Below, piece by piece: positions 7,410 through 50,588 of a stretch of DNA of 50,588 bases (within the stretch, counting starts at the first letter, position 1; every line of letters starts with the position of its first letter). The DNA comes from an uncultured Methanomassiliicoccales archaeon (GTDB lineage: Archaea; Thermoplasmatota; Thermoplasmata; SG8-5). The notes under the pieces were generated by a model that searched no databases, was not told the DNA's origin, and saw nothing but the letters and a program-made list of their open reading frames with translations. A program made the position numbers and the translations under genes. The stretch is taken from the NCBI GenBank assembly GCA_938004075.1, contig CALKWP010000127.1, forward strand, positions 1 to 50,588. The letters run 5' to 3'.

Positions 7410-7562
7410 GATTTCAATCCCGTAACGTGATTTCTTTATTTACATTTTTACATTGCATATTAATTGACATTCAGTGATAATGTATATATATTATATAGGT
7501 ATTCTCCGAAAATACAAAGCGGGCACTCATTTTCGGGAGCCCCAAAAATGGAGGGAGTTGAG

Positions 7563-19500: not shown

Positions 19501-22500
19501 CGCTGAATGCAGCTCCCTGGTCCTGGAACTTCACATTCCCGGACGGCGACGGATACTACGAGCTCTACACAAGGGCCAGTGATGCAGCCGATAACTACGA
19601 AAGCGCGCCAGCCGATGCTGATGCGATATGCGGTTATGATACGGTTAATCCGACCAGCAGCATTGACGCGATATCGCCTTACTGGCAGACATCATCGCCA
19701 ATCAACCTCTCTGCCCAGGGCTCCGACAGCCTGTCAGGCCTAGCATATCTAGATGCCTGGTACAGGTTTGCGCCGGACAACGCAACCTGGACCGCCTGGA
19801 TATTCATAGGCTCTGACCCCACTGCGCCTTACGGAGGGGACTTCAACTTCCCGAACGGCAACGGATATTACGAATTCTATTCAAGAGCCACTGACCTGGC
19901 AGGGAACAATGAGGATATTCCAGCCACAGCCGGCGCGCTGTGTGCATTTGACAGTGATCTACCAATGAGCAATGTGGATGCGATAACGCCATACTGGCAC
20001 ACAACGATGCCGCTCACGGCCACAGCCACAGTGACCGAGGCTCTTTCCGGCATCACATACGTGGAATTCTGGTACAGCCACTCTGCGGATAACATCACAT
20101 TCGGCGCTTACGGCCTGTTCGGCACGGATAACGCCGCGCCCTGGTCCTGGGACTTCGACTTCCCGAGCGGGAATGGATATTACAGGTTCCACTCAAGAGC
20201 CGCAGATCTGGCGGGCAATTATGAGGACGCACCCGCAACAGCCGACGCGATATGCGCCTACGACACAGTCAACCCGACGAGCAGCGTGGATCCAATAGCT
20301 CCATACTGGCAGAACGCATCGCCTCTGATACTGACGGCGACCGCAACCGACATCACGGACGGCATTGCGCAAGTGGAACTCTGGTACCGGTTCGCATCTG
20401 ACAACTCGACATGGGGAGCATGGTCTCTCTTCGGCACGGACAACGCATCGCCCTGGTCCTGGCCATTCACCTCCCCGGATGGAGATGGCTATTACGAGTT
20501 CTACACTAGGGCCACAGACGGCGCTGGCAATTACGAGGATGCGGCAATTTCCGCAGACGCGGCATGCGGTTATGACAGCATCATGCCAATAAGCAGCGCA
20601 GATGCAATCTCCCCGTACTGGCAGACCGCCTCTCCGCTTAACGGGACAGCGACCGCCTCTGACTCTCTCTCGGGCATGGAATCCCTGGAACTCTGGTTCA
20701 GGTTCTCTGTAGATAATGCAACATGGGGCGCATGGACCTATTACGGAACGGATGATGCGGCACCATGGTACGCGAACTTCTTCTTCCCGAACGGCAACGG
20801 ATATTACGAGTTCTACACAATCGCGATAGACAATGCAGGTAACTCCGAGGTTGCGCCTGCGATGGCAGACGCAATATGCGGATTCGACAGCGCGCTCCCG
20901 ATAAGCAGCATAGATGCGATTGCTCCGTACTGGCAGACCGTGAGTTCGCTGAACATCACGGCAACCGCCAGCGCCCTATCCGGCGTCGACACCGTGGAAC
21001 TCTGGTACCGCTTCGCTGTGGATAATTCCACATGGGGCGCATGGACGCTCTTCGGCACGGACAATGCCGCGCCATGGTCCTGGGAATTCACATTCCCTGA
21101 TGGAAACGGATACTATGAGTTCTACTCTAGGGCAACCGATACTGCCACGAACTACGAAGATGCGCCGGCAACTGCAGACGAGATTTGCGCTTACGACACA
21201 ATCGCGCCATCCAGCGAGATGAATGAAGTTCTGGGCTACTGGATATGGATAGGGCCTCTGTGGATGACCGCCACCGCGAACGACACGCTTTCCGGATTGG
21301 CGGACGTTGAATTATGGTACAGATTCTCTGCGGACAACGCGACCTGGGGCGCCTGGACCCTCGGAACGGCCCACGTTGCGCTGTGGAACTGGGATTTCGC
21401 CTTTCCCGAAGGCAACGGTTACTACGAGTTCTACACCAGGGCAACTGACATCGCGGGCAATTACGAGGACGCGCCAATCTCCGCCGATGCGATTTGCGGC
21501 TACGACACGGTAGACCCAACCAGCAGCACAGAAACAATCGCGCCGTACTGGCAGACATCATCGCCGCTGACTATCAACGCCACCGCGAATGATGGGCTGT
21601 CCGGGCTGGCAAGCGTCGAACTCTGGTACAGGCACTCCGCTGATAATATGACCTGGGGCGCCTGGACCCTGTTCGGAACGGACAATGCCGCGCCATGGTC
21701 CTGGGGCTTCGACTTCCCGGACGGTAACGGTTATTACGAGTTCTACACCAGGGCAACTGATGATGCCACGAACTACGAGGATGCGCCGGCTTCCGCTGAC
21801 GTGGTCTGCGCATTCAGCAGCTCGGCCCCCATAAGCAGCGTCGACGCAATCGCGCCGTACTGGCAGACAGCGTCTCCCTTGGCCGTAACGGCAACTGCCA
21901 GCGCCCTCTCCGGCGTTGACACCGTGGAACTATGGTACAGGTTCTCCGCAAACAATGGGACATGGGGCGCCTGGACGCTCTTCGGAACGGACGATGCCGC
22001 ACCATGGTCCTGGATATTCAATTTCCCGAATGGCAATGGTTATTACCAGTTCTACACCAGGGCACGGGACACAGCCACCAACTACGAGGCTGCGCCTGCC
22101 TCGGCAGACAGGGCATGCGCATTCGATAATGCCGCGCCCACAAGCACTGCAAGCGCAATAACCCCATACTGGCGCACAGCATCGCCGGTAACAGTGACGG
22201 CCACCGCAAGCGACATTACCGACGGCGTTGCGACAGTTGAACTGTGGTACAGGTATTCTACCGATAATGCGACCTGGGGCGCCTGGACCCTCTTCGGAAC
22301 CGATAACGCGGCGCCCTGGTCCTGGAACTTCGGTTTCCCCGGTGGCAACGGATATTATGAATTCTATTCAAGAGCATACGACGCTGCAGGCAATTATGAG
22401 AATGCCCCCGGCGCAAGGGACTCGCTCTGCGCCTTCGACAGTGCGGCCCCGGCAAGCACCGTGGACTCAATCATCCCCTACTGGCAGACCTCATCTCCGC

Positions 22501-38781: not shown

Positions 38782-38823
38782 TTCGTCACTCACATCATGA
38801 TCAATCGAATGCCTGGGCGGTTT

Positions 38824-39029
38824 GCGGGATAATGTAATTTGAGGTTGCATTATCCCGCCTCCGGCGAGGCATCATACGTCGCTCCCGTCAAATCTAACAA
38901 AAGATTGTTCTCGCTCCAGGTCTGCGCTTCGCTAACATACGGCTGTGTGCCCTACGACGATATAACGTTCTCATGTGCTTTGTGAATAAACGTGTTTGGC
39001 GGTTACGCCCGCCCTTGCGCCCCTCCGCT
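38824..39029 (+). repeat. Structured repeat element, copy 0 (3' portion only: hairpin 2, conserved core, variant-1 3' arm)
   Basis: An 11-bp hairpin GCGGGATAATG/CATTATCCCGC (38824-58) is followed by CTCCGGCGAGGCATCA. After that come an identical run of about 50 nt (38910-38959 = 46152-46201) and one of about 42 nt (to 39029), both shared with copy A. The copy lies immediately downstream of dphB at the compositional boundary. Confidence 0.8.
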
Positions 39030-39229
39030 TCCAACGAATTTGCTTCGCTCATTCGCCTGAATTTTCTCGCCATGCTCGAAAATGACCCCCTTTCTGCGGA
39101 AAGCCCGCATGCTCGGGGCGCCTTGAATACTTTGGGCCGATGCAATCATACTTATTTAAATTGTCCATTGGAAGGGGTGCTGTCCATCGCGAAGTCGGCA
39201 TCATAAGGTATACGCCTCCGTCTGTGAAG

Positions 39230-40135
39230 TCAGGGGTCATTTTTTCCTTCCGCATTTCCTTGAGTAATTAAGTTCCTCTCTTTTCGCCTTTTTATATACA
39301 AATTGAAAAAGGCGAACGTTTCGATAGATACCCCGATAATTATAAGACAAAAGGACAAAATATAATTACCCTCGTTGAAATACCACAACATTACCCCCAT
39401 TGTCCAAATAATTCCACCGATTATTAAATATAATATAAACAGATGGGAAACCTCTAATTTTTTTCTTTCTTGTTCAGTTGTCACCTTTATATCTTGTTTG
39501 CTTGATTTCTTACCAGGAATGTCTTTATCCTTCAGTTCTTTTAATTCTTTTATACGATATCCCCTCTGCTGTGCGAATGAAAGGAACCAATGAGTACTAG
39601 TAAATAAAATATTTCGTAATAATATGATGAGTGGAATGAATATTGCAACTAAGAACACTATAGGGGTCCAACCTCCGACAATAGGCAGTAGCCAGTATCC
39701 AATTATCACCGAGCAGAACAAACAACCATAGAAGAATATCCAAGCAATAATTGCAGACAATAACTGACCTGGAACTCTGTTGTGCTTCCCGTGTATTGTG
39801 ACGAACCTAATTATTTCGTTAAAATACTCAAGATTTGCCTCTTCATTCCCTGCGAAGAGGGATTTGTTAATGAGTTCTTTAAGGACATTAATGTCTTGAC
39901 AGGCTTCAAGTCCCGGTTCCATTGCAAGTAGTATAAAGCTATATGCGATTAGGTAACTTAACATAATCTCAAATGGATAATCCAAACCGAATAACAGAAA
40001 ATAGATTGCTGGTAGGATAAAGCCAAGAAAGAAAAGGATATAAAATGCCTTGCTTATGCGGTCTCCCTTAGTCCAGATTATTTGCGATATCTCTCTGAAA
40101 TGAGATTCATCTTCTAAAGGGTATTCCTTGTTCAT
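39230..40135 (-). CDS. Polytopic membrane protein, putative immunity partner of the Rhs toxin
   Basis: About 300 aa with at least 6 hydrophobic segments. ATG 40133-40135 overlaps the Rhs TAA by one base (TAATG), which implies translational coupling. AT-rich. The immunity role is inferred from position only. Confidence 0.6.
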   Translation of the reverse strand: MNKEYPLEDESHFREISQIIWTKGDRISKAFYILFFLGFILPAIYFLLFGLDYPFEIMLSYLIAYSFILLAMEPGLEACQDINVLKELINKSLFAGNEEANLEYFNEIIRFVTIHGKHNRVPGQLLSAIIAWIFFYGCLFCSVIIGYWLLPIVGGWTPIVFLVAIFIPLIILLRNILFTSTHWFLSFAQQRGYRIKELKELKDKDIPGKKSSKQDIKVTTEQERKKLEVSHLFILYLIIGGIIWTMGVMLWYFNEGNYILSFCLIIIGVSIETFAFFNLYIKRRKERNLITQGNAEGKNDP

Positions 40136-43100
40136 TACAAACAACCTGCTTGTCTAAGACGCCAAGCTCCATATAATCCAGAGATTAATATCCCTATCAA
40201 GGGCAATATAGTTCCCCAAGAGATAAATTTAAGTCCCATAAAAGCGCTTTTTGCTATTACCTGCCACCAAGGAAGTGATTGTATCCATTTGATACTAATC
40301 CAAACGAATATACTCAATGCAATGCCTGCAAATGCCCATATATCACTGAAAATGGCTGCGGTAATTGTACTCCATTTCCACACGGTCATTAAATTGTAAG
40401 ACAAGCTTTCTATGAAAGAAAGTTTTGCAGCAATACCAATTGCGGAAAAGAACATATTTATAAAAAACATAGACCATTTTAAAGCACATAGGCCTGCAAA
40501 ACTAAGCAATCCAGTCGGGTCCACTCGATTAACTGGATTCCATCCAACATATGCATACATATTGGGGCCATCCACCATTCCTGCCGGGTCCTGCTGCATG
40601 AACCTCCCGATGTCGGGCGAATATGCCCTGGCGCGGTAGTGGTACAGCCCGCTTTCAGCGTCATATTGCCGACCGGTGAACTGGTGCGGGTTGTAAACGA
40701 GTTCGTTGCGAACCAACGCCTCCCCGAAGGGCGTGTAGCGGTACGTGTTGACCACATTCTCGCCCGAGTCAATAAGTTCTGAAACGCTGCCCAGCCCATC
40801 ATACAGATAATAATACTTCACCCCGTCGATTGAGATGCTGATCGGATGGTCCACGAATATGAGCTTACCCCCGCCGCAACCGCTGCCGCACTTCTGGCCG
40901 CAAGCGCTGGCAGAAGGATGTGTGAATCTCACGAGCTTGTTGTCCCACAGCTCGTAGACCACACTCTCGCCGTCGTAGAGATAGGTGAGGTTGACCACTC
41001 CGGCCTTGCTGACCCTGCGCCCGTCCAGGGCGTAGCCGTATGTTGTGGCGCGGGTATCAACGAGGCTCGGGCTGGTTGAGGGGGCGCTGTTCAGCGTGAC
41101 CGGTCCTTCTCCAACCGAATTTTGCTCGTCACCGCCGCCTCCGCCCCCGACAGTGCCCACCGAGACCAGCATGTTCTGTTTTTGGCCGTTGAGGAAGGTG
41201 GATTGGTAGCCGTAGTATGTATCTCCTTCGACCATATTTCCGTTGTTGTCGTAGATGTAGGTTGTGGTGCCGGATTGCAGCAATTTGTTTTCATCGTCAT
41301 ATACTGACGTTGTAGTTTGACTGCCGCCACTTGAAATCTGGATGGTCGCAATCATGTTGTTGCGGAGGTCATACTGGTACTGTGTTTTGCTGCCGTCCGG
41401 ATAACTCACTCCGATCAGCCGGTTTTCAGCGTCGTATGCATAATTTGTGGTTGCGCCATTTGCCTCTTTTACACTTATACGGTTCGCGTTGTAATTGTAC
41501 CCGTATGTGAAACTCGAAATGATTTGCCCATTTGACTTGACATTCTCTATCTTTGTGAGTACATTCGATTTGGCATATGACTGATATATCTTTGTCCCGG
41601 TCGGATAAGTGGTCTGGACAAGTTGGCCAATGGCATCGTACACATAAGTTGTAATGCCACCGCCAGGAGCGATTACTGATTTTAAACGATTGAGGGCATC
41701 ATAGGTGTAGGTGGTGATCAATCCGAATTGGTCGGTCATTGATATTATGTTTCCATTTTCATCGTACTGGTATGTGATTATATACTGCTGAGAAAGGACA
41801 CCTTCGTCAACAAAAACCCAGGTTTCCCTAGTAACCCGGCCCAATAAGTCAAATTCTTTATTCTGGACAGAAAGTCTTGGGGGTGTGGGCATTTGGGGTC
41901 TTGGTGGGTATATGTATATTTCGTAGTTTGGCGGATAATTGTAACCCTGCCTCTCATTCTGTGTAATCTGGTATGTTATATAGACTGTAATATCGCCGGG
42001 CATTCCCATCTTGGTCACTCTGTTCAATGCATCATATGTGTATGATGTGTTCTGGTCGTTCGCATCTATATATTCAATAAGATTGCCGACCTCGTCATAG
42101 GCCCATGAGTATGTGGAACCCAATGGCGATGTTTCGCTGATTTTTCTGCCCAGCAGGTCATATCCATATTGCCATGTTGAATCTAAGTCTCCGTCATATT
42201 GACTGACGCTCACAAGGTTGCCAATGGAATCATATGAATATCTCGTGTCAGAACCAGCCGCTCCTAATTCCCTAACGCGATTTCCTAGACTATTATACTC
42301 ATAGATTGTCTCATAGTTCATCCGGTCAATGCGTTTTGTCATTCTACCTTCTGCATCATATTGATACCTGATGGCCAGGTTATAGGGGCAATATTCTTCG
42401 ATTATCCTGCCAAGTGCATCATATGTATTTGCCCAGAAGTTGCCAAGTTTATCTTGTTTCTTTATCATGTTGCCGCTGGCATCGTATGTGTAAATATCGA
42501 AAAAGCCCAGCGCATCCGTGATTTTGACAACTCTGTCCATCGCATCATATTCATAATTGGTAATTGCACCGCGCTTGTCTGTTTCTTTAATCAGATGTCC
42601 TTTCACATATTCAAAGGATTTTGTTTTAAGAAGGGCATCTCTCTCAGTTAATTTATTACCGAATACATCATAAGTGTACGTTGTGACCGCCGCATTTCTA
42701 TCAGTAAAACTAAGAAGATTTCCCATAGCATCATATGTATATGATTCAATATTATTCAACGAATCTATCGTTTGAGTCATTCTGCCAAGCGCGTCGTATG
42801 TGTATTGAGTTACGAATCCTCTTGCATCGGTCATTGAAACCTTCTGATTAATGGTGTTATATGAGAAGAATGTGTGGTAGCCCAGAGCGTCAGTTTGTTC
42901 GACGATGTTTCCATGAGCATCATATGTGTATGTAGAAATTCCACCATTCGCACTCGTTTGAGACGTCATGAGGCCATTTGAACTGAACACATATGATGAA
43001 GTATACCCTTCTGAATTGGTTAGACTCAATGGGTTGTTGTTCGCGTCATAGACATAATTGGTTTCTTCACCATTTTTATCAACGGTTTTGATTGGAATAG

Positions 43101-45792
43101 AAAGATAGAGGTTAGGTGTGGCAAAGGTGCTATACACCGTACCTGTTTTTTTGGTTAAGGGATCTTCCCTCTCTATCAGATTCCCAACGGCATCATATTT
43201 GCTTTTCCAGCTAAATCCGCGAGCGTCAGTTTCAAGTTCGGGTTTTAAATCTTTATTAAATGTGATGCTGGTTGAGGTTGTATCGGGGTTAATTATCTTT
43301 ACTGCTGCACCATTTGAATCAAATATTCTTTTTGTCGATTGAGTGTTTGCATTTAATGTCGTGGTTGTGTGACCGGGGTAAACATAAGTGGCTTCATATT
43401 CTACGTAGTACTGGGTTTTCTGTCCTGAATCAAAATAATATTCACCGACGGTGCATTTGGAAATCTTAGAGCACCAATCTGAAGTAGAAGTATATTGATA
43501 TTCTTTGTACAGGCCCAATGGGTTTATAGTCATCACCATTTTGTGTATGGTTGCTGGAGTTAGGATATTATATGAATATCTATATTCGTTGTTCATCGCA
43601 TCTTTTCGGGTTCTTAAATTTCCATTAATATCATAGGTATACGTGTTGGTCCTTCCGGCCGGATCCACTACTGATGTAATTAGATTGCCAGTATAAATCA
43701 AATTAAGATATAACCCAGAATCATCCTCTACTTTAATCAGCCTATAATTACCATCATATGACATGTGAAGTGAGTTGCCGTTTTTGTCTACTATTTCATT
43801 CAGTAAACCTTGTGAACTAAATACCTTTACGCTACCATCTGTAAATCTCAAATTGTAAAAAGTGCCAGCACTAATTATATCTATATTAACACCGGGTGGA
43901 GATGAATATGCACCATTTCCCAAGCTTTCAAATTCGTAAAAGCTTCCATCTCCTGCAATGAAATCCACAAATCCAGTTCTAAATTGTAATTTTTCACCGT
44001 AGTTGAATTGCCAACCATACCCGAATGGTCCATTAATTTCCGAGTTTAAACTATTATAAATTCGTTCCAGTTTTATTGTATGCCCTAATGCTTTGAGCTC
44101 GATATCCAGACTTGTCACCGCGAGATTGCCATTAACCTGATTGATGCCGTCCTGATACTCGTTCCAAGCTACTTTACCTTTGGAACCCACGATGTTTTTT
44201 ATTCTGGGGTCGTAGTTGCTAGACCTTTCGCCGGGAATTTCATCGTCCGATGTTCCTAAGATGCCGTCCTGACCAGCTCTTTCAAATATCATATCTTTGT
44301 CTTTGTCTTGCCAGCCATCATAGAGGCCGTCTTGGCTTGTGTCAGATAGGTAATTTGCTGTCGTGACATCATCAACAATTATTTTTGCATAATTAATATT
44401 AATCTGACCGCCGTTTGATGAAGTGAATTTAAATGGTATGGATATTGTTGTGGCAGCACTGTTTGTATAATACTTGAAGATGTATTCGTTCATTGCTCCT
44501 CGGATTGAACCCAGCCTTAATGTCGCAGTAAAGGGCATTATTGCCCTCCAATCGATGGTGCCATCATTGCCAACATCTAATTGTAAATCATTGATTGGAA
44601 GAGTTGTGCCTGATGCAGGGGTCAGTTCAATCACGGCATTTTGAATAAGGTAATTATTAAACGATGAAACAGTAAACGATAATGTTGTAATGGTGGATGG
44701 GTTGGTTGATATGCCTGTAATCGGATTGAAAGCTGTTTTTGTTAATTCAGTAACGGCATTTGTAACGGGCTGTGTGTCTTCGCTTAGATCTGTGAGCCCG
44801 TCACCGTCGCTATCCGACTGGCTTGCGTCTGCCTGGGTGTAAACACTGAAATGTTCAACATATGCCCACACATAGCCATCATCTTGGTTTATGCCAGTAT
44901 ATTCTCCATTTTCCCAATCCGTTACAACTACCCAATTATCGCCGACCTGTCTGTACATTCTCAAACATTCGCTGGTCAGCGTTGCCGGAACATTTTCAGT
45001 GATTGGCATCTTAATTATTGCTTTAAATTCGGTTGACGTATCAACGTTTATGTCAATATATTCTCCAGTTGAAACACTAAAATTACCGCTGGTTGATTCT
45101 ACGGTCGGGACAATGTTATCTTCTCCGGAATAATCGACAGCAACTGTTACTCCGAGGTCATTGTCTGTGGCGATGACATCCGGGGTCATGTCAATCGCGA
45201 AATTGTCCGTGTTGTAAATCATCGGTTCGGCATCGCTGATGTCTGGAATCAAATCACAATCAATGTCAGCGGTTAATGCTAATGAACCGGAGCGGACCCA
45301 TGAAAAAGAAACAATTCCTTCGCCCGCAACCATGTCCAGATTGGGCGCAACTGGCCACGGTGCAGCCCCACCGTATCTTGGAGATGTGAATGAAATACCA
45401 TGATCTGAACTGCCTGCATACCAGTATTTGTTATCGTGCCAGGCTTCCTCGATCCACGACACATAGATTATTCCGGTGGTCTCATCAATAGAGACCTGGG
45501 GCCAATGAGAATTTAATTCGGAATAACTAATCTGAACGGGGGAATTCCATGCGTGCCCAGGAATTTGGGAACCAATATCATTTTTATAAAATACTTCAGC
45601 TTGCGTGGATATATCATTTTTAATTAATTGGCTATAGACCATGTGAGTATTTCCATTCTCATCAATGAGCGTATCCTGCTGTATAATCATCCCCTCTGAG
45701 CCACGGGCTGCTGCCGCAGGCTGGAATACCATAGCCATCATCGTCAAAACACACAATACCGATATTGTCACGGTTAATAACTTATTTTTCAT
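40135..45792 (-). CDS. Rhs/YD-repeat polymorphic toxin (1885 aa) with a hydrophobic C-terminal tip
   Basis: The protein contains, in order:
- signal peptide MKNKLLTVTISVLCVLTMMAMVFQPAAAA
- Asp-box-like SSDHGISF
- Ca-binding-like DSDGDGLTDLSED
- dozens of YD repeats (YTYDxxGNL, YxYDAxGR...)
- Rhs core end YRARAYSPDIGRFMQQDPAGMVDGPNMYAYVGWNPVNRVDPTGL
- a C-terminal region of about 120 aa with 4 hydrophobic helices. Confidence 0.9.
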   Translation of the reverse strand: MKNKLLTVTISVLCVLTMMAMVFQPAAAARGSEGMIIQQDTLIDENGNTHMVYSQLIKNDISTQAEVFYKNDIGSQIPGHAWNSPVQISYSELNSHWPQVSIDETTGIIYVSWIEEAWHDNKYWYAGSSDHGISFTSPRYGGAAPWPVAPNLDMVAGEGIVSFSWVRSGSLALTADIDCDLIPDISDAEPMIYNTDNFAIDMTPDVIATDNDLGVTVAVDYSGEDNIVPTVESTSGNFSVSTGEYIDINVDTSTEFKAIIKMPITENVPATLTSECLRMYRQVGDNWVVVTDWENGEYTGINQDDGYVWAYVEHFSVYTQADASQSDSDGDGLTDLSEDTQPVTNAVTELTKTAFNPITGISTNPSTITTLSFTVSSFNNYLIQNAVIELTPASGTTLPINDLQLDVGNDGTIDWRAIMPFTATLRLGSIRGAMNEYIFKYYTNSAATTISIPFKFTSSNGGQININYAKIIVDDVTTANYLSDTSQDGLYDGWQDKDKDMIFERAGQDGILGTSDDEIPGERSSNYDPRIKNIVGSKGKVAWNEYQDGINQVNGNLAVTSLDIELKALGHTIKLERIYNSLNSEINGPFGYGWQFNYGEKLQFRTGFVDFIAGDGSFYEFESLGNGAYSSPPGVNIDIISAGTFYNLRFTDGSVKVFSSQGLLNEIVDKNGNSLHMSYDGNYRLIKVEDDSGLYLNLIYTGNLITSVVDPAGRTNTYTYDINGNLRTRKDAMNNEYRYSYNILTPATIHKMVMTINPLGLYKEYQYTSTSDWCSKISKCTVGEYYFDSGQKTQYYVEYEATYVYPGHTTTTLNANTQSTKRIFDSNGAAVKIINPDTTSTSITFNKDLKPELETDARGFSWKSKYDAVGNLIEREDPLTKKTGTVYSTFATPNLYLSIPIKTVDKNGEETNYVYDANNNPLSLTNSEGYTSSYVFSSNGLMTSQTSANGGISTYTYDAHGNIVEQTDALGYHTFFSYNTINQKVSMTDARGFVTQYTYDALGRMTQTIDSLNNIESYTYDAMGNLLSFTDRNAAVTTYTYDVFGNKLTERDALLKTKSFEYVKGHLIKETDKRGAITNYEYDAMDRVVKITDALGFFDIYTYDASGNMIKKQDKLGNFWANTYDALGRIIEEYCPYNLAIRYQYDAEGRMTKRIDRMNYETIYEYNSLGNRVRELGAAGSDTRYSYDSIGNLVSVSQYDGDLDSTWQYGYDLLGRKISETSPLGSTYSWAYDEVGNLIEYIDANDQNTSYTYDALNRVTKMGMPGDITVYITYQITQNERQGYNYPPNYEIYIYPPRPQMPTPPRLSVQNKEFDLLGRVTRETWVFVDEGVLSQQYIITYQYDENGNIISMTDQFGLITTYTYDALNRLKSVIAPGGGITTYVYDAIGQLVQTTYPTGTKIYQSYAKSNVLTKIENVKSNGQIISSFTYGYNYNANRISVKEANGATTNYAYDAENRLIGVSYPDGSKTQYQYDLRNNMIATIQISSGGSQTTTSVYDDENKLLQSGTTTYIYDNNGNMVEGDTYYGYQSTFLNGQKQNMLVSVGTVGGGGGGDEQNSVGEGPVTLNSAPSTSPSLVDTRATTYGYALDGRRVSKAGVVNLTYLYDGESVVYELWDNKLVRFTHPSASACGQKCGSGCGGGKLIFVDHPISISIDGVKYYYLYDGLGSVSELIDSGENVVNTYRYTPFGEALVRNELVYNPHQFTGRQYDAESGLYHYRARAYSPDIGRFMQQDPAGMVDGPNMYAYVGWNPVNRVDPTGLLSFAGLCALKWSMFFINMFFSAIGIAAKLSFIESLSYNLMTVWKWSTITAAIFSDIWAFAGIALSIFVWISIKWIQSLPWWQVIAKSAFMGLKFISWGTILPLIGILISGLYGAWRLRQAGCL

Positions 45793-45840
45793 GTTAATTC
45801 CCCGCTATTAATTTCATTGCTTGAATATTCAAACCTAGGT

Positions 45841-45861
45841 TATAAAGGTTTTGTGAGATTA
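45841..45861 (-). promoter_or_regulatory. Putative archaeal BRE/TATA promoter of cassette 1 (conserved cassette promoter motif)
   Basis: The minus strand reads ATCTCACAAAACCTTTATAACCTAGG, about 50 nt upstream of the Rhs ATG. The same CTCACAAAA + TATA arrangement recurs at 48245-48267 and 50421-50440. Confidence 0.5.
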
Positions 45862-45880
45862 CTCATATTTTCTGTACTAA

Positions 45881-46272
45881 CGACCGCCAAACACTACGGA
45901 TTATTTGCACATTAAAAACGGGCACACAGCCTTAGCCAGTAGACGCTTGCCCCAAGTGAATGCACAAGCCCGGATATAAGGCTTGTGTTCACACTCCCCG
46001 TCCCTTCGTTGTACTCGTGATTGCTCACCGTAACGTTTGGAAGATGGTGGTTCGCAACCGTGCGGTTTCCTGGATTAGCGTCATTGAGAGGACAGAAACC
46101 TCCGGCGAGGCATCACGAGGGCCTATCGTCGCATACATCAAAAAATAGCTCTCGCTCCAGGTCTGCGCTTCGCTAACATACGGCTGTGTGCCCTACGACG
46201 GTAAAACGGTATCATGTGCATATGCTCCGAAACGTGTTTGGCGGTTACGCCCGCCCTTGCGCCCCTCCGCTG
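45881..46272 (+). repeat. Structured repeat element, copy A (variant-1 5' arm, core with two hairpins, variant-1 3' arm)
   Basis: The 5' arm 45882-45950 is complementary to the 3' arm. Paired blocks are CGACCGCCAAACAC / GTGTTTGGCGGT at 46235-46, GGGCACACAGCC at 45921-32 / GGCTGTGTGCCC at 46183-94, and TGCACAT / ATGTGCA. Hairpin 1 is at 45964-45988 and hairpin 2 at 46065-46101. The conserved block GGCGAGGCATCACGAGGGCCTATCG is at 46105-46129. Confidence 0.85.
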
Positions 46273-46443
46273 GCCCCTGGCTACGCCAACCCGCCTGCTC
46301 AAGGCGCTTGGATTATTTGAAAATAATCGAAATTAATGCATTGCTAATAATCCATTCCGATGATGCCGTTCGTTATCAGGCGCACGTACACTGATGAATT
46401 GCTCTCATCCACAACGATAAGATATCCGCATCCGTCCGTGAAT

Positions 46444-46899
46444 TCAGGGGTCATGGGGTTCTTCCTCGGTTATTGATAGAATTATGGAAGGGGGATATAA
46501 TGGTGGCGGAACTCTGGCCATCATATGATTTTGAACATAACAAGAGGATAATAGTGTGAAAACATAAATTAATGAAATCCATGTAAATAAGGCGACGACA
46601 GTACTAATCACTAGTATAATTAGAGAAAGATTGGAGGCTTTATTTCTGTATACTTCATTTGATGAATAATAATGCATATTTATTCCTATACCAAAACCTC
46701 CGATTACTGTGACACTAATTATTATCAAATATGGGTGTATAATGAACGGAAGCACAAAGGGAATAAAAAGAGAAATAAGAACAATAATTAATGAAAAAGC
46801 CAGTGACATAATATCAATCCAATTAACTTGATGTTCTTCGTTATAATCGAAGCTGACAGGTTTTAATGATTTGATATCGCTCCTATTTAAAAGCGGCAT
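46444..46899 (-). CDS. Small polytopic membrane protein, putative immunity partner of the orphan Rhs tip
   Basis: ATG 46899 is preceded by GGAGGG 8 nt upstream. The ORF-track start at 46941 overlaps the upstream gene by 26 nt. There are 4 hydrophobic segments. The last codons and 25 nt of 3' flank are conserved with the 39230 gene. Confidence 0.6.
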   Translation of the reverse strand: MPLLNRSDIKSLKPVSFDYNEEHQVNWIDIMSLAFSLIIVLISLFIPFVLPFIIHPYLIIISVTVIGGFGIGINMHYYSSNEVYRNKASNLSLIILVISTVVALFTWISLIYVFTLLSSCYVQNHMMARVPPPLYPPSIILSITEEEPHDP

Positions 46900-46915
46900 A
46901 ATCTTGACCCTCCAT

Positions 46916-48103
46916 TCAACCACATGTATAGGTCGTTCCAAGGCCTTTCAAATACCACCAAAACAGGTTACACCAGGTATATGCGGTATATCCCGAATAG
47001 AAACGAATATCGCGTCCTACGCGATTTGCAACTTTGTCACATTGAGATTGGGCAGGTGTGTTTGTTTTTAATACTTTCACATCAAAATATTCCTTTGTAT
47101 CTGTAATCTTTTGAGTATAATAATTGGAAAGACCACAAAGATTAATCATTGATGCTGACCAAAGGCAATGTTGATATTTATCATTTTTTCCACCATCTGG
47201 ATCAGATGCCCCATGCGCGGTAATTCCGGCATTAACGGCACACATATTATACGCACATATAAAATAAAATAAAGTGATTGAAATAAGGCTTAACAACAAC
47301 ATTCCGCTCGGATCTACCATGTTGGTGGGGTTATTCCCGACATACGCGTACATATTCGCCCCGTCCACCATCCCGGCCGGGTCCTGCTGCATGAACCGCC
47401 CGATACTAGGCGAATATGCCCTTGCTCGGTAATGATAGAGGCCACTTTCTTTATCAAATTGTCTCCCAGTAAACTGGTACGGATTGTAAACCGTTTCCTC
47501 CTTTACCAACACACTCCCGAAAGGTGAGTACCTGTAGAAATTGACAATAGTCTCATTGGCGTCAATGATCTCAGTAACGCTGCCTAAACCGTCGTATAGA
47601 TAAAAGTACTTAACACTATCAACTATAATTTTAATGGGGTGGTCCACAAAACTGGAGGTAGTGAACCTCACTAGCATATTGTCCCACATCTCGTAAATCA
47701 CGTTCTCGCCATCGTAGAGGTATTTCATGTCCACGTGGCCGGCTTTTCCGACTCTCCTGCCATCGAGCGCGTAGCCATAGGATGTGGCCGGGGTGGTGTC
47801 GTCCTGTGGTTCAGATGGTGCTGTACTGCTCATTGTAACCGGTTCTTCTCCCGCAGACTGCTGTTCATCGCCACCGCCTCCGCCGCCAATCGTTCCGACG
47901 GATATGAGCCCGTTCACCTTGTAGCCGTCCAGGAAAGTGGATTCCGTCAGTCGATTTTTCCTTGGAGATTTATAAAAGATGTATGACTCTCCGTCATCTG
48001 TTCTGATGACGTCGTTCGAAAATGTCCAGCTCATATAAACTGATAATGTATCCTGGTTTACATGGATGTAATACCAACCACCTTCAATAATCTCAATGGT
48101 CAT
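46916..48103 (-). CDS. Orphan Rhs C-terminal module (core end plus distinct toxin tip), 395 aa
   Basis: It is homologous to the last part of the full Rhs (STFLDGYKVNGLISVGTIGGGGGGDEQ...YGYALDGRRVGKAG...YRARAYSPSIGRFMQQDPAGMVDGANMYAYVGNNPTNMVDPSGM). After DPSGM comes an unrelated Cys-rich tip of 125 aa. The N-terminal roughly 50 aa are not Rhs-like. Confidence 0.85.
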   Translation of the reverse strand: MTIEIIEGGWYYIHVNQDTLSVYMSWTFSNDVIRTDDGESYIFYKSPRKNRLTESTFLDGYKVNGLISVGTIGGGGGGDEQQSAGEEPVTMSSTAPSEPQDDTTPATSYGYALDGRRVGKAGHVDMKYLYDGENVIYEMWDNMLVRFTTSSFVDHPIKIIVDSVKYFYLYDGLGSVTEIIDANETIVNFYRYSPFGSVLVKEETVYNPYQFTGRQFDKESGLYHYRARAYSPSIGRFMQQDPAGMVDGANMYAYVGNNPTNMVDPSGMLLLSLISITLFYFICAYNMCAVNAGITAHGASDPDGGKNDKYQHCLWSASMINLCGLSNYYTQKITDTKEYFDVKVLKTNTPAQSQCDKVANRVGRDIRFYSGYTAYTWCNLFWWYLKGLGTTYTCG

Positions 48104-48244
48104 GCTCTTCCTCGCTGATGGAGGGAATGACCCCGGTGATATAAAAAGCTAGCGGGTTTTGGGTCAGTATATCATTCCCTCCCATTTTTTGATGTGCGGT
48201 ACAATGCTGATTCCCCTAAATTTTCACATATTGATAGGTAAACT

Positions 48245-48267
48245 AGGTAATAAATATTTTGTGAGAT
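48245..48267 (-). promoter_or_regulatory. Putative BRE/TATA promoter of cassette 2
   Basis: The minus strand reads ATCTCACAAAATATTTATTACCTAGTT, the same motif and order as at 45841-45861, about 150 nt upstream of ATG 48103. Confidence 0.45.
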
Positions 48268-48311
48268 CTCTCCTATAACTCTCTATTGTTATTATGTTAA
48301 AAATGGATATT

Positions 48312-48622
48312 ACGACCGCCAAACACTACGGATTAAATGCACATTAGAAACGGGCACACAGCCTTAGCCAGTAGACGCTTGCCCCAAGTGAATGCGAAAG
48401 GCAGATAATAAGCCTTTCGTCCCTGCTCCCCGTGCCTGCGTTGTACTTGTCATCGCTCGCTGCGCTCGCAACCGTGCGGAAACCTGTCTTTACGGCGCTG
48501 GCAGGTCGGTTTCCTTCGGCGAGGCATCACGAGGGCCTATCGGCGATAATAACAAAAGATTGCTCTCGGCCCAGCTTCGCTACGGAGTGCCCTACGGAAT
48601 AACGACGAGGGATGGCCTACGA
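48312..48622 (+). repeat. Structured repeat element, copy B (variant-1 5' arm, core, variant-2 3' arm)
   Basis: The 5' 84 nt are about 96% identical to copy A. Hairpin 1 is CGAAAGGC/GCCTTTCG (48395-48419) and hairpin 2 is GGAAACC/GGTTTCC (48478-48514). The conserved 25-mer is at 48518-48542. The 3' arm (GGAGTGCCC at 48584-92, AGGGATGGC at 48608-16) differs from variant 1. Confidence 0.85.
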
Positions 48623-48970
48623 TATTTTTTGTAGCTGATCTAAAGTTATAACTCCTGTAAATACATGCTTACCATATATCACTGTTGGGGTAATTTTGAT
48701 GCCTTTTAATTTAGCATGTATATTGTCCCAAAAACTTGCCTTATCATAAATTACTAATTTCAAACCCTGGTGTTTCGCGAAATCCTCAATGAGTTTCTTT
48801 ACCTTGACTTCATCATCGGATAGCCATTTGTGGATGGAAGTAATGAGTTGTTCATTATATCCGCCGATGCTGCGACGATTGCGAACTTCTTTGATATGTT
48901 CTAAAGGTCGTGTATCTGTCTGGATGTGTTTTTTTGTATGCAGAAACAATTCAATCTTTTTTGGTATCAT
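48617..48970 (-). CDS. Small hypothetical protein (possible thioredoxin-like fold without CxxC)
   Basis: 117-aa AT-rich ORF. The C-terminal LKLVIYDKASFWDNIHAKLKGIKITPTVIYGKHVF resembles the beta-alpha-beta...PT..beta layout of glutaredoxin/thioredoxin-fold proteins but has no redox cysteines. The fold assignment is weak. Confidence 0.5.
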   Translation of the reverse strand: MIPKKIELFLHTKKHIQTDTRPLEHIKEVRNRRSIGGYNEQLITSIHKWLSDDEVKVKKLIEDFAKHQGLKLVIYDKASFWDNIHAKLKGIKITPTVIYGKHVFTGVITLDQLQKIS

Positions 48971-49034
48971 TCATCGCCCTCATAAATAAAGGAAAAGGAG
49001 GGCGATAGGGATATATTTTCGCCCTCATTTAAGA

Positions 49035-50336
49035 TTACAGTCCTATACCGCAGAAAGCAGGATTGTAGCAAAACAGGTTATTTGCACAACACGGCTCGCT
49101 CGGATCGCTTGTATCTAATAGGGTGGCTACAATTTTTCCACTTTCTATTCTTGAACCCATCGCCTCCCAACCGTAATAGGTTCCAATGTTTGGTTGCCCG
49201 GAGTCAATAATTGCTGTTATTTCAGTTTCATTGTTTATTGAGTCGTAGTGCGTAAAAGCATAATTTCCTGGGCTATATATAGAATACTGGAAGAACTGGT
49301 TTAATTCACCATTATTGACCAGGAACGTTGTCAGGAATCGATTGTTCTCTGGTGTTATTGTTATTACACCATTATAATTTATCTCAAGAATACTGTACTC
49401 GAAATGTTGTCTTGTGCTGAGGATCTCAAGAGTTGCCTGTACATACTGTCCTTCGTAGTCTGTAACGGTAAATTGCTCCACTCTTTTGTGCCCATTTTCA
49501 GAAATTATTGTCGAACTAGCCACAAAATCCGATTGTTGGGTATGATCCGCACCCCACATAGAAAATTCATTCGTGTATGGGTTCAGCGAGAAACCTATCT
49601 CGGGCGTTGTGATAACCTTAATCATAATTGTTTGGGAAGCAAGGTCACTCTGCCTCGTTGCACTAAGATAAAATACGGGATTTGTGGTTGTATCAAGTGG
49701 TATTATTGCACTCTCACTCAACTGCACGTTACCTCCTGGTACCGCAGTAACTATTGTTGGCGGCAGGCCTCCAGCAAAGCCCCATCCTTCTGGTATTGTT
49801 GATTCATCTACAGATACAGTGAATACATCTCCAAAGAGCATTTCATTTTTTAGAAAGACTGGCACACTAATTGAAGTTCCCGGTGTTGCTCCAACCGCAA
49901 TCAAACATCTGTGAAATTCATTGTTGTTTTCATCAACTTCCGTTATAAGATTGGTAGTATCAGCAATTGCCTCAAAATTTACCTGGTGTGTGTTAAGGGC
50001 AACAATGGTAGTTTCAATTGCTTTTATTTCTCCTGCTCTAATTGGCGGCTCTACCCATAATTGATATGTTTCAGTTGCCTCTTGCCAAAAGCCAGATAGT
50101 TCTGCATAATGAAGCTCAGCCCAAAATCCATGTTGCACCGATGCTTCACCAATATTCTCCACTGTTACAGTAACCGGTAGAGAATCACCCGTTTCTACGG
50201 GATACACCCAACCAATTCCCCTCACAATTAGGTCTGGTTGTCCTTGTTTTGCCTGAACACTTGATGGTAGAACCATCATTCCACTCAAAAAAACCATGCT
50301 CACAATTATTATTGCTCCAATTCGTGTTTTCTCCAT
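49035..50336 (-). CDS. Secreted CARDB-like domain protein with a Cys-rich C-terminus
   Basis: Signal peptide MEKTRIGAIIIVSMVFLSGMMVLPSSVQA. PDLIVRGIGWVYPVETGDSLPVTVTVENIGEAS matches the CARDB-type motif DL.V......G....V.V.N.G. The C-terminus is EPCCANNLFCYNPAFCGIGL. Confidence 0.7.
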   Translation of the reverse strand: MEKTRIGAIIIVSMVFLSGMMVLPSSVQAKQGQPDLIVRGIGWVYPVETGDSLPVTVTVENIGEASVQHGFWAELHYAELSGFWQEATETYQLWVEPPIRAGEIKAIETTIVALNTHQVNFEAIADTTNLITEVDENNNEFHRCLIAVGATPGTSISVPVFLKNEMLFGDVFTVSVDESTIPEGWGFAGGLPPTIVTAVPGGNVQLSESAIIPLDTTTNPVFYLSATRQSDLASQTIMIKVITTPEIGFSLNPYTNEFSMWGADHTQQSDFVASSTIISENGHKRVEQFTVTDYEGQYVQATLEILSTRQHFEYSILEINYNGVITITPENNRFLTTFLVNNGELNQFFQYSIYSPGNYAFTHYDSINNETEITAIIDSGQPNIGTYYGWEAMGSRIESGKIVATLLDTSDPSEPCCANNLFCYNPAFCGIGL

Positions 50337-50420
50337 GTTATTCCTCCTCCTGTTTCATCGGTGTTCATATCCGTTTCGATGCGTGGTTATGAAACCTAGA
50401 GTTCAAAAAGTTCTTCATAT

Positions 50421-50440
50421 GATAAATAACTTTTGTGAGA
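50421..50440 (-). promoter_or_regulatory. Putative BRE/TATA promoter of cassette 3
   Basis: The minus strand reads TCTCACAAAAGTTATTTATC, about 85 nt upstream of ATG 50336. It shares the CTCACAAAA + TATA layout of the other two cassettes. Confidence 0.4.
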
Positions 50441-50481
50441 AAACTTAAGATACTTTTAAGTACTCTGCGAAAAAGATTGAT

Positions 50482-50588
50482 ACGACAGCCATCCCTTAAC
50501 CGTTTCGTATTAACCGGGCACTCCTCCGCTACACCAAGTGAATGCGAAAGGCAGGATTTAAGCTTTTCGTCCATGCTCCCCGTGTCTG
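50482..50588 (+). repeat. Structured repeat element, copy C (variant-2 5' arm plus start of core; cut by window end)
   Basis: GCCATCCCT (50488-96) and GGGCACTCC (50516-24) are exact complements of copy B 3' arm blocks. They are followed by the conserved CCAAGTGAATGC and hairpin 1 CGAAAGGC/GCTTTTCG (50545-69), which has one G-T pair on the + strand. Confidence 0.8.

Follow-up and report, generated by a model that had tools for sequence, protein, structure and literature searches.

Folded elements separate gene cassettes in Methanomassiliicoccales-like archaea and may be sites for an IS200/IS605-type transposase

Introduction

Toward the end of a 50,588-nucleotide stretch of DNA from an uncultured Methanomassiliicoccales archaeon (hereafter the window), a GC-rich repeat recurs between AT-rich genes of unrelated kinds. 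This arrangement raises the question of what the repeat is and how the genes between its copies came to be lined up. Here, we find that the repeat belongs to a previously undescribed family of folded elements standing between gene cassettes. We see about an even chance that it serves as the junction element between cassettes in a chromosomal array of gene cassettes, in which a Y1 (HUH) transposase takes the place of a tyrosine integrase.

Results

Copies of the element in the window

The initial annotation had reported four copies of the repeat, and all four were confirmed at their places on the plus strand. Together with the cassettes that they delimit, they are as follows (slashes in sequences below mark the junction).

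38807-39029, plus strand: element copy 0, a "minimal" variant; its GAATGC start lies 25 nt past the diphthine synthase stop codon
38807-45957: cassette 1
39230-40144, minus strand: 304-aa multi-pass membrane protein of cassette 1, no Pfam match
40135-45792, minus strand: 1885-aa RHS/YD-repeat polymorphic toxin of cassette 1 (RHS_repeat, E = 2.4e-90; DUF6531)
45880-45957, plus strand: 78-nt "type I" right-end module of cassette 1, final letters CCCCAAGT; predicted junction between 45957 and 45958
45958-46310, plus strand: element A, full length, with a TATA-like loop in hairpin 1 and a GC-rich 3' extension
46444-48103, minus strand: genes of cassette 2
46444-46941, minus strand: 165-aa membrane protein of cassette 2
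46916-48103, minus strand: 395-aa orphan RHS C-terminal toxin module of cassette 2, 70% identical to 40544-40843 of the main RHS gene
48312-48389, plus strand: type I right-end module of cassette 2; predicted junction between 48389 and 48390
48390-48622, plus strand: element B, with a short 3' extension
48617-50336, minus strand: genes of cassette 3
48617-48970, minus strand: 117-aa protein of cassette 3
49035-50336, minus strand: 433-aa secreted CARDB-domain protein of cassette 3
50482-50539, plus strand: "type II" right-end module of cassette 3 (...CGGGCACTCCTCCGCTACACCAAGT); predicted junction between 50539 and 50540
50540-50588, plus strand: start of element C, with GAATGC and hairpin 1 (one G-T pair), cut by the window end

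Judged by its position, the 304-aa membrane protein is the putative immunity protein of the RHS toxin. The element core measures 214 nt, or 390-430 nt with extensions, and the overall range is 200-430 nt; its conserved blocks are CCAAGTGAATGC, CTCCCCGT, AACCGTGCG, and CTCCGGCGAGGCATCAC. In element A, hairpin 1 (45963-45987), a middle hairpin (46021-46057), and hairpin 2 (46064-46100) are followed by GGCGAGGCATCA (46104-46115), a 3' helix, and then the extension, while GGCTGTGTGCCC and GTGTTTGGCGG form pairs with 45880-45957. Only in this copy are the long-range inverted repeats CCGCCAAACAC and GGGCACACAGCC complete. Hairpins 1 and 2 of element B lie at 48395-48419 and 48478-48514. Two motifs, GGCGAGGCATCA (at 38863, 46104, and 48518) and CCAAGTGAATGC (at 45952, 48384, and 50534), each occur three times, compared to 0.3-0.4 occurrences expected by chance.

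Most of the sequence blocks described in the initial annotation proved accurate. The 84-nt 5' block differs at three positions between copies A and B (~96% identity), copies 0 and A have long identical 3' runs in common, and the contrast in composition holds, with a G+C content of 0.52-0.56 in the elements, 0.40-0.42 in the cassette interiors, and 0.56 in the host core. The shared 25-mer was correctly placed at 48518-48542, while its other occurrence begins one base earlier than annotated (46104-46128 and not 46105). Copy 0, however, had been taken for a 3' part only, which was wrong; it is a recurrent variant, found as the same type in locus L120, with the layout GAATGC-CTGGGCGG-hairpin-CTCCGGCGAG-GCATCA. 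Its 11-bp hairpin (38824-38858) is followed by CTCCGGCGAGGCATCA (38859-38874) and by the 3' extension that it has in common with copy A.

No integrase or recombinase gene was found among the window genes, including the 38 kb upstream of the array, and the window, whose end falls within the array, has no Y1 transposase gene (tnpA). The far end, which carries the IS200-type transposase in related loci, lies beyond the window. The sole tRNA of the window lies 8 kb from the array; this distance and the lack of an integrase led us to reject a tRNA or integrase att-site duplication. A small protein gene, suggested by 62- and 80-aa open reading frames through copies A and B, was rejected as well, because indel lengths do not keep to multiples of three and the stem changes are compensatory.

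Covariation and strand bias of the fold

Hairpins 1 and 2 were found as first described, and their compensatory changes persisted when further copies were added. Among 13 copies from five genomes, 96.4% of the paired cells could pair, as compared to 85% in shuffles, and none of 500 shuffles equaled this value; 13 of the 32 pairs had changed on both sides, and sliding the partner by 1-3 columns lowered pairing to 35-46%. In 218 distinct copies, hairpin 1 was 87% paired with 160 double-change cells and hairpin 2 was 88% paired with 321. Four helices are backed by covariation and were recovered independently by mutual information. RNAalifold run on the HMM-column alignment lost the variable hairpins, and per-hairpin folds and mutual information were used instead. 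The covariation across hundreds of copies, together with indels that are not multiples of three, bears out the proposal that selection acts on a folded single strand and not on a peptide.

The fold is biased toward one strand. G-U/G-T pairs point to the plus strand (219 versus 57 in the middle hairpin; overall GU:AC ratio, 2.3), and copy A folded as RNA gives z = -3.9 on the plus strand versus -2.2 on the minus strand. Copy 0 forms one long imperfect hairpin (z = -6.3 on plus, -3.6 on minus). Because the minimal variant folds in this way, its hairpin may not be the positional homologue of hairpin 2. Rfam returned no match to the element at gathering score in the whole window and none at E ≤ 10 in 38700-50588. 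This result, along with a size and sequence unlike attC, agrees with the initial view that the element fits no known class of noncoding RNA or attC site.

One-directional arrays in related genomes

A search beyond the window, as the initial annotation had proposed, recovered 245 copies of the element in 83 fetched loci from Thermoplasmata and Methanomassiliicoccales metagenome-assembled genomes and metagenomes. All copies within a locus lie on one strand (83 of 83 loci), spaced 0.5-2.5 kb apart in arrays of up to 11 copies, and open reading frames of at least 80 aa within the arrays run mostly opposite to the element (185 versus 71 on the element strand). Such one-directional arrays recur in every related locus, in line with the idea that the element punctuates an AT-rich cassette array. 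Plasmids, phages, and viral contigs gave no element match, and a literature search found no description of these arrays.

The cargo comprises HicAB, RelE, PIN, and MazE-like toxin-antitoxin pairs and small proteins of the membrane or secreted kind, to which the window adds an RHS toxin locus; this cargo is typical of mobile cassettes. Among 92 pairs of homologous cassettes, the neighbors were non-homologous on the left in 21 and on the right in 35. For homologous cassettes with differing neighbors, no shared core variants were found on either side, and the core comparison was uninformative as to which flanking element travels with a cassette, as both cores stood at background similarity. Element variants are genome-specific. 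No excision or insertion polymorphism or cassette-sized indel was detected among near-identical arrays of the fetched set, and the host-proximal first elements are truncated at differing points.

The cassette junction and the terminal region

The boundary between cassettes presumably lies at AAGT/GAATGC, as mapped from array ends and module boundaries only. At the array end in about nine independent loci, the final cassette closes with ...C(C/T)AAGT/, after which a conserved terminal region (CACGCxCTCCCAT...ATATCAGCTAACATACCCCG...CAGACGAGGCTTGT) replaces GAATGC. The type I module at 45880-45957 shares 96% identity with both 48312-48389 and L120:8567-8644, and its BLAST matches to both stop exactly at the T of AAGT; in L120, the module is followed by the terminal region in place of GAATGC. 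The lone cassette of L065 has GTGAATGC at its left bound and CCAAGT/ at its right bound. Every internal and terminal junction is preceded by AAGT, and the host-proximal ends, often truncated, by AATC or AATCGT. The junctions read showed no flanking duplication.

On the left end of a cassette, a hairpin whose stems differ between copies begins 6 nt past the junction. The type II module also ends cassettes in L008, L011, L132, and other loci. Many right ends consist of 15-25 nt of 5' untranslated region with no hairpin. A crossover in or near hairpin 2, suggested by the single-cassette locus L004 and by the ends of BLAST blocks, was dropped because hairpin 2 is intact in the arrays; the block ends merely follow the variable stems.

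A Y1 transposase gene at array ends

In about ten related loci, the arrays have host genes on one side and a Y1_Tnp gene on the other, past the terminal region (L006/L124, L014/L125, L068, L030, L119-122, L123, L128/129, L130/131, and L132/133). Its place is invariably the 3' end of the array, and all eight homologues that were looked up are found there. The transposase link for the array of the window rests on these loci, among them L120, which shows synteny with the window; there, DCD-HAD-Trm5-Dph5 precede the array and tnpA follows it. No array end with flanking sequence carries an integrase. An end fragment in L081 contains motifs that we take to resemble a tyrosine-recombinase C terminus; it was discarded as an integrase, having no Pfam match and no relative in other loci.

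The proteins match NCBIfam NF033573 at 114-120 bits (cut-off 55), their HUH histidines H62 and H64 and catalytic tyrosine Y125 are invariant, and among solved structures the Sulfolobus and ISHp608 TnpA proteins are the nearest. At 59-86% identity, the tnpA genes are diverged orthologues that occupy the same relative position at different genomic loci. In L124, tnpA lies 14 nt from the neighboring host gene, a packing unlike that of a recently moved insertion sequence. Across loci, tnpA points in either direction and is found as far as 4.8 kb past the last recognizable element.

Putative expression signals on the gene strand

Hairpin 1 loops are TATA-like in 59% of cases versus 10% for hairpin 2 loops, and the leftward open reading frame has its start codon a median of 46 nt from the junction. 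The TATA-like loop is so placed that it may serve as a promoter for the neighboring cassette. The gene strand of the element also has a T-rich run.

Discussion

Comparison with known systems

The arrays resemble integrons in several respects. Chromosomal integrons have one-directional arrays, a cargo rich in toxin-antitoxin pairs, species-specific sites, and structure conserved above sequence. Likewise, unrelated cassettes of one to three genes here form co-oriented arrays in which each cassette ends in a site, the site folds on one strand with its structure conserved above its sequence, toxin-antitoxin pairs and small unknown proteins make up the cargo, site variants are homogeneous within a genome, and a special terminal site lies beside the enzyme gene. 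In contrast to integrons, the arrays adjoin no IntI-type tyrosine recombinase gene, and the enzyme linked to them, an HUH Y1 transposase, has no kinship with tyrosine recombinases. Moreover, the site is branched and 200-430 nt long, whereas attC sites measure ~57-141 nt and have both R''-L''/L'-R' boxes and a GTTRRRY core; a comparison with the attC consensus by eye showed neither boxes nor core in our element. Finally, each site apparently has its own outward promoter, while integrons rely on one Pc promoter.

With the single-strand "peel and paste" transposons of the IS200/IS605 group (IS608, ISDra2), the arrays share a strand-specific structure and the lack of terminal inverted repeats, and the transposase at array ends in related loci is of the same family (NF033573; Pfam PF01797) with its conserved HUH and tyrosine residues. 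A possible further parallel is the boundary, which at internal and terminal junctions, though not at host-proximal ends, directly follows one tetranucleotide, with a hairpin close by and no target duplication in the junctions read. The tetranucleotide is AAGT here and TTAC in IS608. TnpA proteins of this group normally bind short, sequence-conserved hairpins at both ends. By contrast, the units described here have no sequence-conserved subterminal hairpins at both ends; their stems vary between copies, and many lack a right-end hairpin. They carry cargo genes and no tnpA or tnpB of their own, they lie head to tail in arrays that have just one tnpA, located at one end, and that gene is seemingly fixed in place as diverged orthologues and not multi-copy.

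REP/REPIN sequences and their RAYTs, which are domesticated IS200-like transposases, also combine a single-copy, vertically inherited Y1 transposase with many tetranucleotide-tagged imperfect palindromes thought to be its substrate. However, the proteins found here score 24-30 bits against the RAYT model NF047646 (cut-off 80), and REPs are 20-40 nt long, scattered over the genome, and cargo-free, while our elements are about ten times longer, clustered, and separate cassettes. Cassettes 1 and 2 are laid out as in RHS/polymorphic-toxin loci, with a full RHS gene and a membrane protein followed by an orphan C-terminal module and its partner. In RHS loci, however, such modules are swapped through homologous recombination inside the rhs coding region, a process that neither uses nor accounts for the GC-rich structured element, and here the element also separates unrelated cassettes in the window and in every other locus. 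The uniform direction and the lack of terminal inverted repeats with target-site duplication are unlike MITEs, which lie in either direction.

A proposed cassette platform and its alternatives

We infer that TnpA is the catalyst, that AAGT/G is the cleavage position, that the substrate is single-stranded DNA, and that the element has a promoter role. An integron-like cassette platform, with a folded plus-strand site processed by the Y1 transposase at AAGT/GAATGC, appears to us an evenly balanced proposition. A cassette would run from GAATGC, at the foot of the long branched plus-strand hairpin, through one to three minus-strand genes to a right-end module ending in C(C/T)AAGT, and within an array the right end of one cassette would abut the hairpin of the next. 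On the gene strand, the element could supply a T-rich stop signal to the cassette on its right and, through the hairpin 1 loop, which is TATA-like and lies ~20 nt away from the junction, a promoter to the cassette on its left. The plus strand, folded as single-stranded DNA, would be the transposase nicking site; nicks at two successive junctions might release a cassette circle with one rebuilt site, which could integrate anew 3' of any AAGT junction, with the conserved terminal site beside tnpA as the likeliest target. Such events would explain tandem one-directional arrays.

Some observations count against such a platform. Stem variability, a 200-430-nt site, and many cassettes with no right-end hairpin depart from usual TnpA sites. 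The heavy G-U use of the middle hairpin is more RNA-like than DNA-like. The window itself has no tnpA, and the orientation and distance of tnpA vary elsewhere. No excision or insertion polymorphism was seen among near-identical arrays of the fetched set, homologous cassettes with differing neighbors have no core variants in common, the junction is mapped from array ends and module boundaries only, and host-proximal elements are truncated.

The main alternative, which we consider unlikely, is that the element is a gene for a structured noncoding RNA of ~170-400 nt, transcribed from the plus strand antisense to the cassette genes, that regulates, insulates, or guides; the link to the transposase would be indirect, or the RNA would act with it. 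Such an RNA would account for the multi-helix architecture with conserved junction sequences and a conserved internal loop, for the many plus-strand G-U pairs (above all in the middle hairpin), for the stronger plus-strand RNA fold of copy A, and for a size and complexity far above those of known TnpA binding sites. However, no conserved plus-strand promoter was found in the sequence upstream of the element, and numerous copies have the start of a cassette gene 15-60 nt from the core, which would force a full-length RNA to begin within that gene. Transcription might begin at a bidirectional promoter, the palindromic hairpin 1 around its TATA-like loop, yet hairpin 1 covaries and would lie outside an RNA starting in its own loop. 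Rfam has no match, and an RNA gene leaves array polarity, the AAGT junction, and the terminal site beside tnpA unexplained.

A further alternative, in our view a decidedly doubtful one, is that the element is a passive expression module (terminator or insulator plus promoter) with no dedicated cassette recombination. It would have spread by homologous recombination and gene conversion or by MITE/PATE-like insertion into intergenic spaces of pre-existing islands, and the IS200 gene at the array end would be an ordinary hairpin-preferring insertion. The TATA-like loop and the gene-strand T-rich run fit this idea, as do genome-specific variants, which suggest concerted evolution, and near-identical arrays with no cassette-sized indel. 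But a promoter or terminator has no need of four covarying, strand-biased helices, random insertion would not yield one direction in 83 of 83 loci nor a defined terminal junction, and the position and divergence of the tnpA orthologues, with the 14-nt spacing in L124, speak against an ordinary insertion.

A divergent integron or other tyrosine- or serine-recombinase system, in which the repeats would act as attC-like or att sites and the integrase would lie beyond the sampled DNA, is very improbable: the array direction, cargo, species-specific sites, conserved structure, and the L081 fragment would suit it, but integrases are absent from the 38 kb upstream in the window and from flanked array ends, the L081 fragment stands alone, the element differs from attC in size and, as judged by eye, in motifs, and the archaeal integron paper names neither Thermoplasmata nor Methanomassiliicoccales (PMC9668308).

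Implications

Returning to the transposase-served platform, it is conceivable, if somewhat short of an even chance, that Methanomassiliicoccales/Thermoplasmata archaea independently invented the integron principle. In that case, a domesticated IS200-type HUH transposase would capture, store, and reshuffle promoter-linked cassettes through a large folded single-stranded DNA site nicked and joined at AAGT/GAATGC, with entry at the terminal site beside tnpA. Even if this mechanism is wrong, the element constitutes a structured nucleic-acid family that is large, well supported, and missing from Rfam, its copies numbering in the hundreds, and it is a practical marker of flexible genome regions and assembly breaks in the lineage. 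If the platform is real, it would represent a second, non-homologous route to integron-like gene capture, archaeal and based on single-strand HUH chemistry, and would add to RAYTs a new case of a domesticated transposase. As a compact, sequence-tagged means of inserting single-strand DNA, it might be of use as a tool, and it would explain how these archaea assemble AT-rich accessory islands with toxins, toxin-antitoxin pairs, and surface proteins.

A cassette array in the AT-rich part of the window

At a G+C content of 0.56, the host core of the window closes with the genes for dCTP deaminase, a HAD hydrolase, Trm5/TYW2 and diphthine synthase (stop at 38781), a set that identifies the genome as archaeal. 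After 38.8 kb and up to the end of the window, the G+C content falls to 0.40-0.42, and all sizeable genes lie on the - strand. We found the four copies of a GC-rich repeat element (G+C 0.52-0.56) where the initial annotation had placed them, between the gene groups.

Elements and gene groups of the AT-rich stretch
38807-39029, + strand: element copy 0
First gene group, - strand: 304-aa membrane protein and 1885-aa RHS toxin
45958-46310, + strand: element copy A
Second gene group, - strand: 165-aa membrane protein and 395-aa orphan RHS C-terminal module
48390-48622, + strand: element copy B
Third gene group, - strand: 117-aa protein and 433-aa CARDB protein
50540-window end, + strand: element copy C

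The reported 96% identity of the 5' block between copies A and B was confirmed, and the other shared blocks are present as well. The 25-mer also exists, although its coordinate in copy A had been off by one base. The element had not been recognized as any known noncoding RNA, and Rfam returned no match at the gathering score and none at E <= 10. Read as an analogue of an integron, the stretch divides into three cassettes (38807-45957, 45958-48389, and 48390-50539), with a fourth beginning at 50540. Over 300 nt, the orphan C-terminal module in cassette 2 (47337-47636) is 70% identical to the part of the full cassette 1 RHS gene where core passes into toxin (40544-40843); such similarity is the usual substrate of toxin-tip swapping via homologous recombination, here across two cassettes.

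Outside the array, the window carries a block of huge proteins that probably belong to the cell surface. Two giant ORFs of 3062 aa (16551-25739, repeats 19045-23074) and 2117 aa (7464-13817, repeats 8487-11261) contain tandem coding repeats: ~11 units (309-312 nt each, 60-74% identical) in one, and three ~987-nt units in the other, two of the latter being 90-100% identical. Two more ORFs belong to this block, 788-6901 (2037 aa) and 13864-16533 (889 aa), the second having no Pfam match. At 26040-26951, a 303-aa protein containing a small GTPase domain of the Ras/Roc/Arf type adjoins a P-type cation ATPase, and a similar Ras/Arf-like gene lies close to the array at the related locus L123.

Distribution and organization of the element family

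In an exact-pattern scan of one genome per species, true copies were found only in the Thermoplasmata/Methanomassiliicoccales MAGs VMTD01, CAYHBA01, UBA147, and UBA280, apart from one further copy on an 8-kb contig binned as Anaerolineales. This contig (locus L009; DHFN01000049.1, "Anaerolineales bacterium UBA4823", 8093 nt) holds three copies of the kind that is typical of the archaeal arrays and was probably mis-binned into a bacterial MAG. A second pattern matched 101 metagenome stretches and had no match in the viral contigs scanned with it.

A profile of the 214-nt core detected 245 copies, distributed over 83 loci. No locus has copies on both strands; the spacing is 0.5-2.5 kb, and up to 11 copies occur in 12 kb. 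ORFs of at least 80 aa inside the arrays lie mostly opposite the element strand (185 versus 71 on the same strand), and the most frequent cassette contents are HicA/HicB, RelE/ParE-like, PIN, MazE/AbrB-like, and small membrane proteins. Homologous cassettes are found beside nonhomologous neighbors. Such arrays recur across loci, and the AT-rich part of the window is therefore one example of a widespread type of cassette array.

Fold of the element and its strand

The two hairpins with compensatory changes that had been proposed for the element were both found. In an alignment of 13 copies from 5 genomes, 96.4% of cells pair as compared to 85% in shuffles, and 0 of 500 shuffles reached the observed value. 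Both sides were altered in 13 of the 32 pairs, and sliding the partner by 1 to 3 columns lowered pairing to 35-46%. Among 218 distinct copies, hairpin 1 (profile 15-37) was 87% paired with 160 double-change cells and hairpin 2 (117-151) was 88% paired with 321, while the base of hairpin 2 (CTCG..CCG / CGG..CGAG) was 98% paired with the pair numbering shifted by one column. Mutual information over the same copies, calculated without a structural prior, recovered hairpin 1, the middle hairpin at 72-109, hairpin 2 (whose bulged base is conserved), and a helix on the 3' side that pairs 171-175 with 206-210 around a small hairpin. The predicted, invariant pairing of GTGAATGC with GCATCAC would close the whole fold. 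Copy 0 represents a minimal site, GAATGC-CTGGGCGG-hairpin-CTCCGGCGAG-GCATCA, forming one long bulged hairpin that starts at the junction (z = -6.3).

The middle hairpin has 219 G-U pairs when read on the + strand versus 57 on the - strand, and the GU:AC ratio across all proposed pairs is 2.3. This wobble bias favors the + strand, and thus the folded strand, as RNA or single-stranded DNA, is antisense to the cassette genes. Indels in the element are not multiples of three.

Probable promoter and possible stop signal on the gene strand

In many copies, the start codon of the left cassette gene is only 15-60 nt from the core (median of 46 nt over 188 junctions), and one common flank, ...GGCCACTCCTCCGCTACG, corresponds on the - strand to GGAGG and then a GTG start codon. 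The A/T-rich loop of hairpin 1, on the - strand for example TTTATATA or TTATAT, is TATA-like in 59% of distinct loops as compared to 10% for hairpin 2. It lies ~20 nt from ACTTGG, and ~20 nt is the usual archaeal TATA-to-start distance. Thus, the TATA-like loop and the close start codons suggest that the element very probably carries the promoter of the neighboring cassette. On the other side of the element, a T-rich run (CTTTTGTT on the - strand) could serve as the stop for the cassette there.

Array ends and junctions

The upstream neighbors of arrays are ordinary host genes (in the window, diphthine synthase; in other loci, ornithine carbamoyltransferase, aIF6, a phosphoglycerate mutase-like gene, or thiC), and the first element at this end is 5'-truncated or of the "minimal" type. 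The downstream end has a sharp boundary: the final cassette closes with ...C(C/T)AAGT in about nine independent loci, and a conserved terminal region follows in place of GAATGC. This region consists of CACGC(A/T)CTCCCAT, an A/T-rich stretch, and then ATATCAGCTAACATACCCCG...CAGACGAGGCTTGT...GTATGTTAGCT; it lies on the element strand and contains a long inverted repeat. The 78-nt module preceding copies A and B shares 96% identity with the final module of the related locus L120, and both matches end exactly at the T of AAGT (45957 and 48389). At L065, a solitary cassette has GTGAATGC as its left border and CCAAGT| as its right border.

The motif CCCxGCCCT(T/A)ACAGGCA(A/G)GG...AATCGT precedes the first element in L065 (6640-6700) and L079 (element-oriented copy, 4560-4652) and resembles ACCCCGCCCTTACAGACGAGG, which is part of the terminal region downstream; arrays may lie between two copies of a platform site. 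Upstream of the lone L065 cassette, the 3' end (CCCTTCTCCCGCAC) of a tRNA-like gene (about 6262-6347) is repeated ~170 nt downstream (about 6520), a pattern resembling the scar that an integrative element leaves. The L120 island also contains a tRNA-like sequence (8868-8990, - strand), which has a long variable arm. The sole tRNA of the window, tRNA-Thr(TGT) at 30435-30511 (-), is located 8 kb away from the array and does not serve as an attachment site.

A Y1 transposase gene at the end of related arrays

A gene for an IS200/IS605-type Y1 transposase (tnpA) follows the terminal region, in some cases with a DUF4258/MazE-like pair in between. The transposase matches Pfam PF01797 and NCBIfam NF033573 (114-120 bits) and falls under the RAYT cut-off. 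The gene was initially found in four array loci. Eight homologs were looked up (59-100% identical), and all those with enough flank adjoin an array or terminal region. Its position is always the array 3' end, in either orientation. The HUH histidines and the tyrosine are invariant, and the nearest solved structures are Sulfolobus and ISHp608 TnpA. L120 and the window are syntenic; L120 has, in this order, DCD-HAD-Trm5-Dph5, an array of different cassettes, tnpA, and host genes, and the window array most likely has the same ending beyond base 50588.

In several genomes, the immediate neighbors of tnpA are a toxin-like gene of the DUF4258 family and a MazE/MqsA-like gene for a 110-aa zinc-ribbon protein; their order varies, and they may stabilize or regulate the platform. 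A promoter-like motif, AATACTTTC-N(15-20)-TTTATATACC, is found upstream of tnpA and the adjacent toxin-antitoxin genes.

Features beside tnpA in related loci
L124 8931-9470: DUF4258 and MazE/MqsA-like genes
L125 2633-3173: DUF4258 and MazE/MqsA-like genes
L132 1374-1912: DUF4258 and MazE/MqsA-like genes
L133 721-1259: DUF4258 and MazE/MqsA-like genes
L068: DUF4258 and MazE/MqsA-like genes; promoter-like motif
L120 9790-9960: promoter-like motif
L014 3040-3110: promoter-like motif
L006 5660-5740 and 6320-6380: promoter-like motif

The assemblies of L118, L125, L132, and L133 end 0.7-3 kb upstream of tnpA, at or just past the terminal region or the last element. Short-read assemblies are probably fragmented by the repeats, and arrays are therefore likely to be under-represented in MAGs.

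Discussion

Y1 HUH transposases act on folded single-stranded DNA, cut at a fixed tetranucleotide beside a hairpin, and move circular single-stranded intermediates (see PMC5027513, PMC3597680). Similarly, the array sites have a strand-specific fold and a boundary at AAGT, 6 nt before the hairpin foot. The uniform direction of the arrays and their head-to-tail stacking also match such an action, the latter because every cassette ends in the same AAGT, the would-be target. We infer catalysis, the cleavage position, and the mobility of the cassettes. With IS200/IS605 chemistry, the folded strand would be the template of the lagging strand, and cutting after AAGT would be strand-specific and form a covalent 5'-phosphotyrosine link.

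The array site greatly exceeds known TnpA sites in size and variability. Each genome has its own core variants, which do not move together with cassettes, the first elements of arrays are ragged, and no cassette-sized indels were found between near-identical arrays. The main rival explanation is a structured + strand RNA, perhaps transcribed from the palindromic hairpin 1 by way of a bidirectional promoter. The many G-U pairs of the middle hairpin would suit RNA, and such a transcript could coexist with a role of the element as DNA.

We found no description of such arrays in the paper library searched for archaeal integrons, IS200 with cassettes, archaeal RAYTs, HUH integron-like systems, and Thermoplasmatota islands. 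The Y1 transposase, the cassette array, and the folded site each have known analogs, and a system combining all three was not found described. Given the match of the array features to Y1 HUH action, we read the system as an integron analog, in which a domesticated IS200-type transposase would run integron-like cassette arrays.
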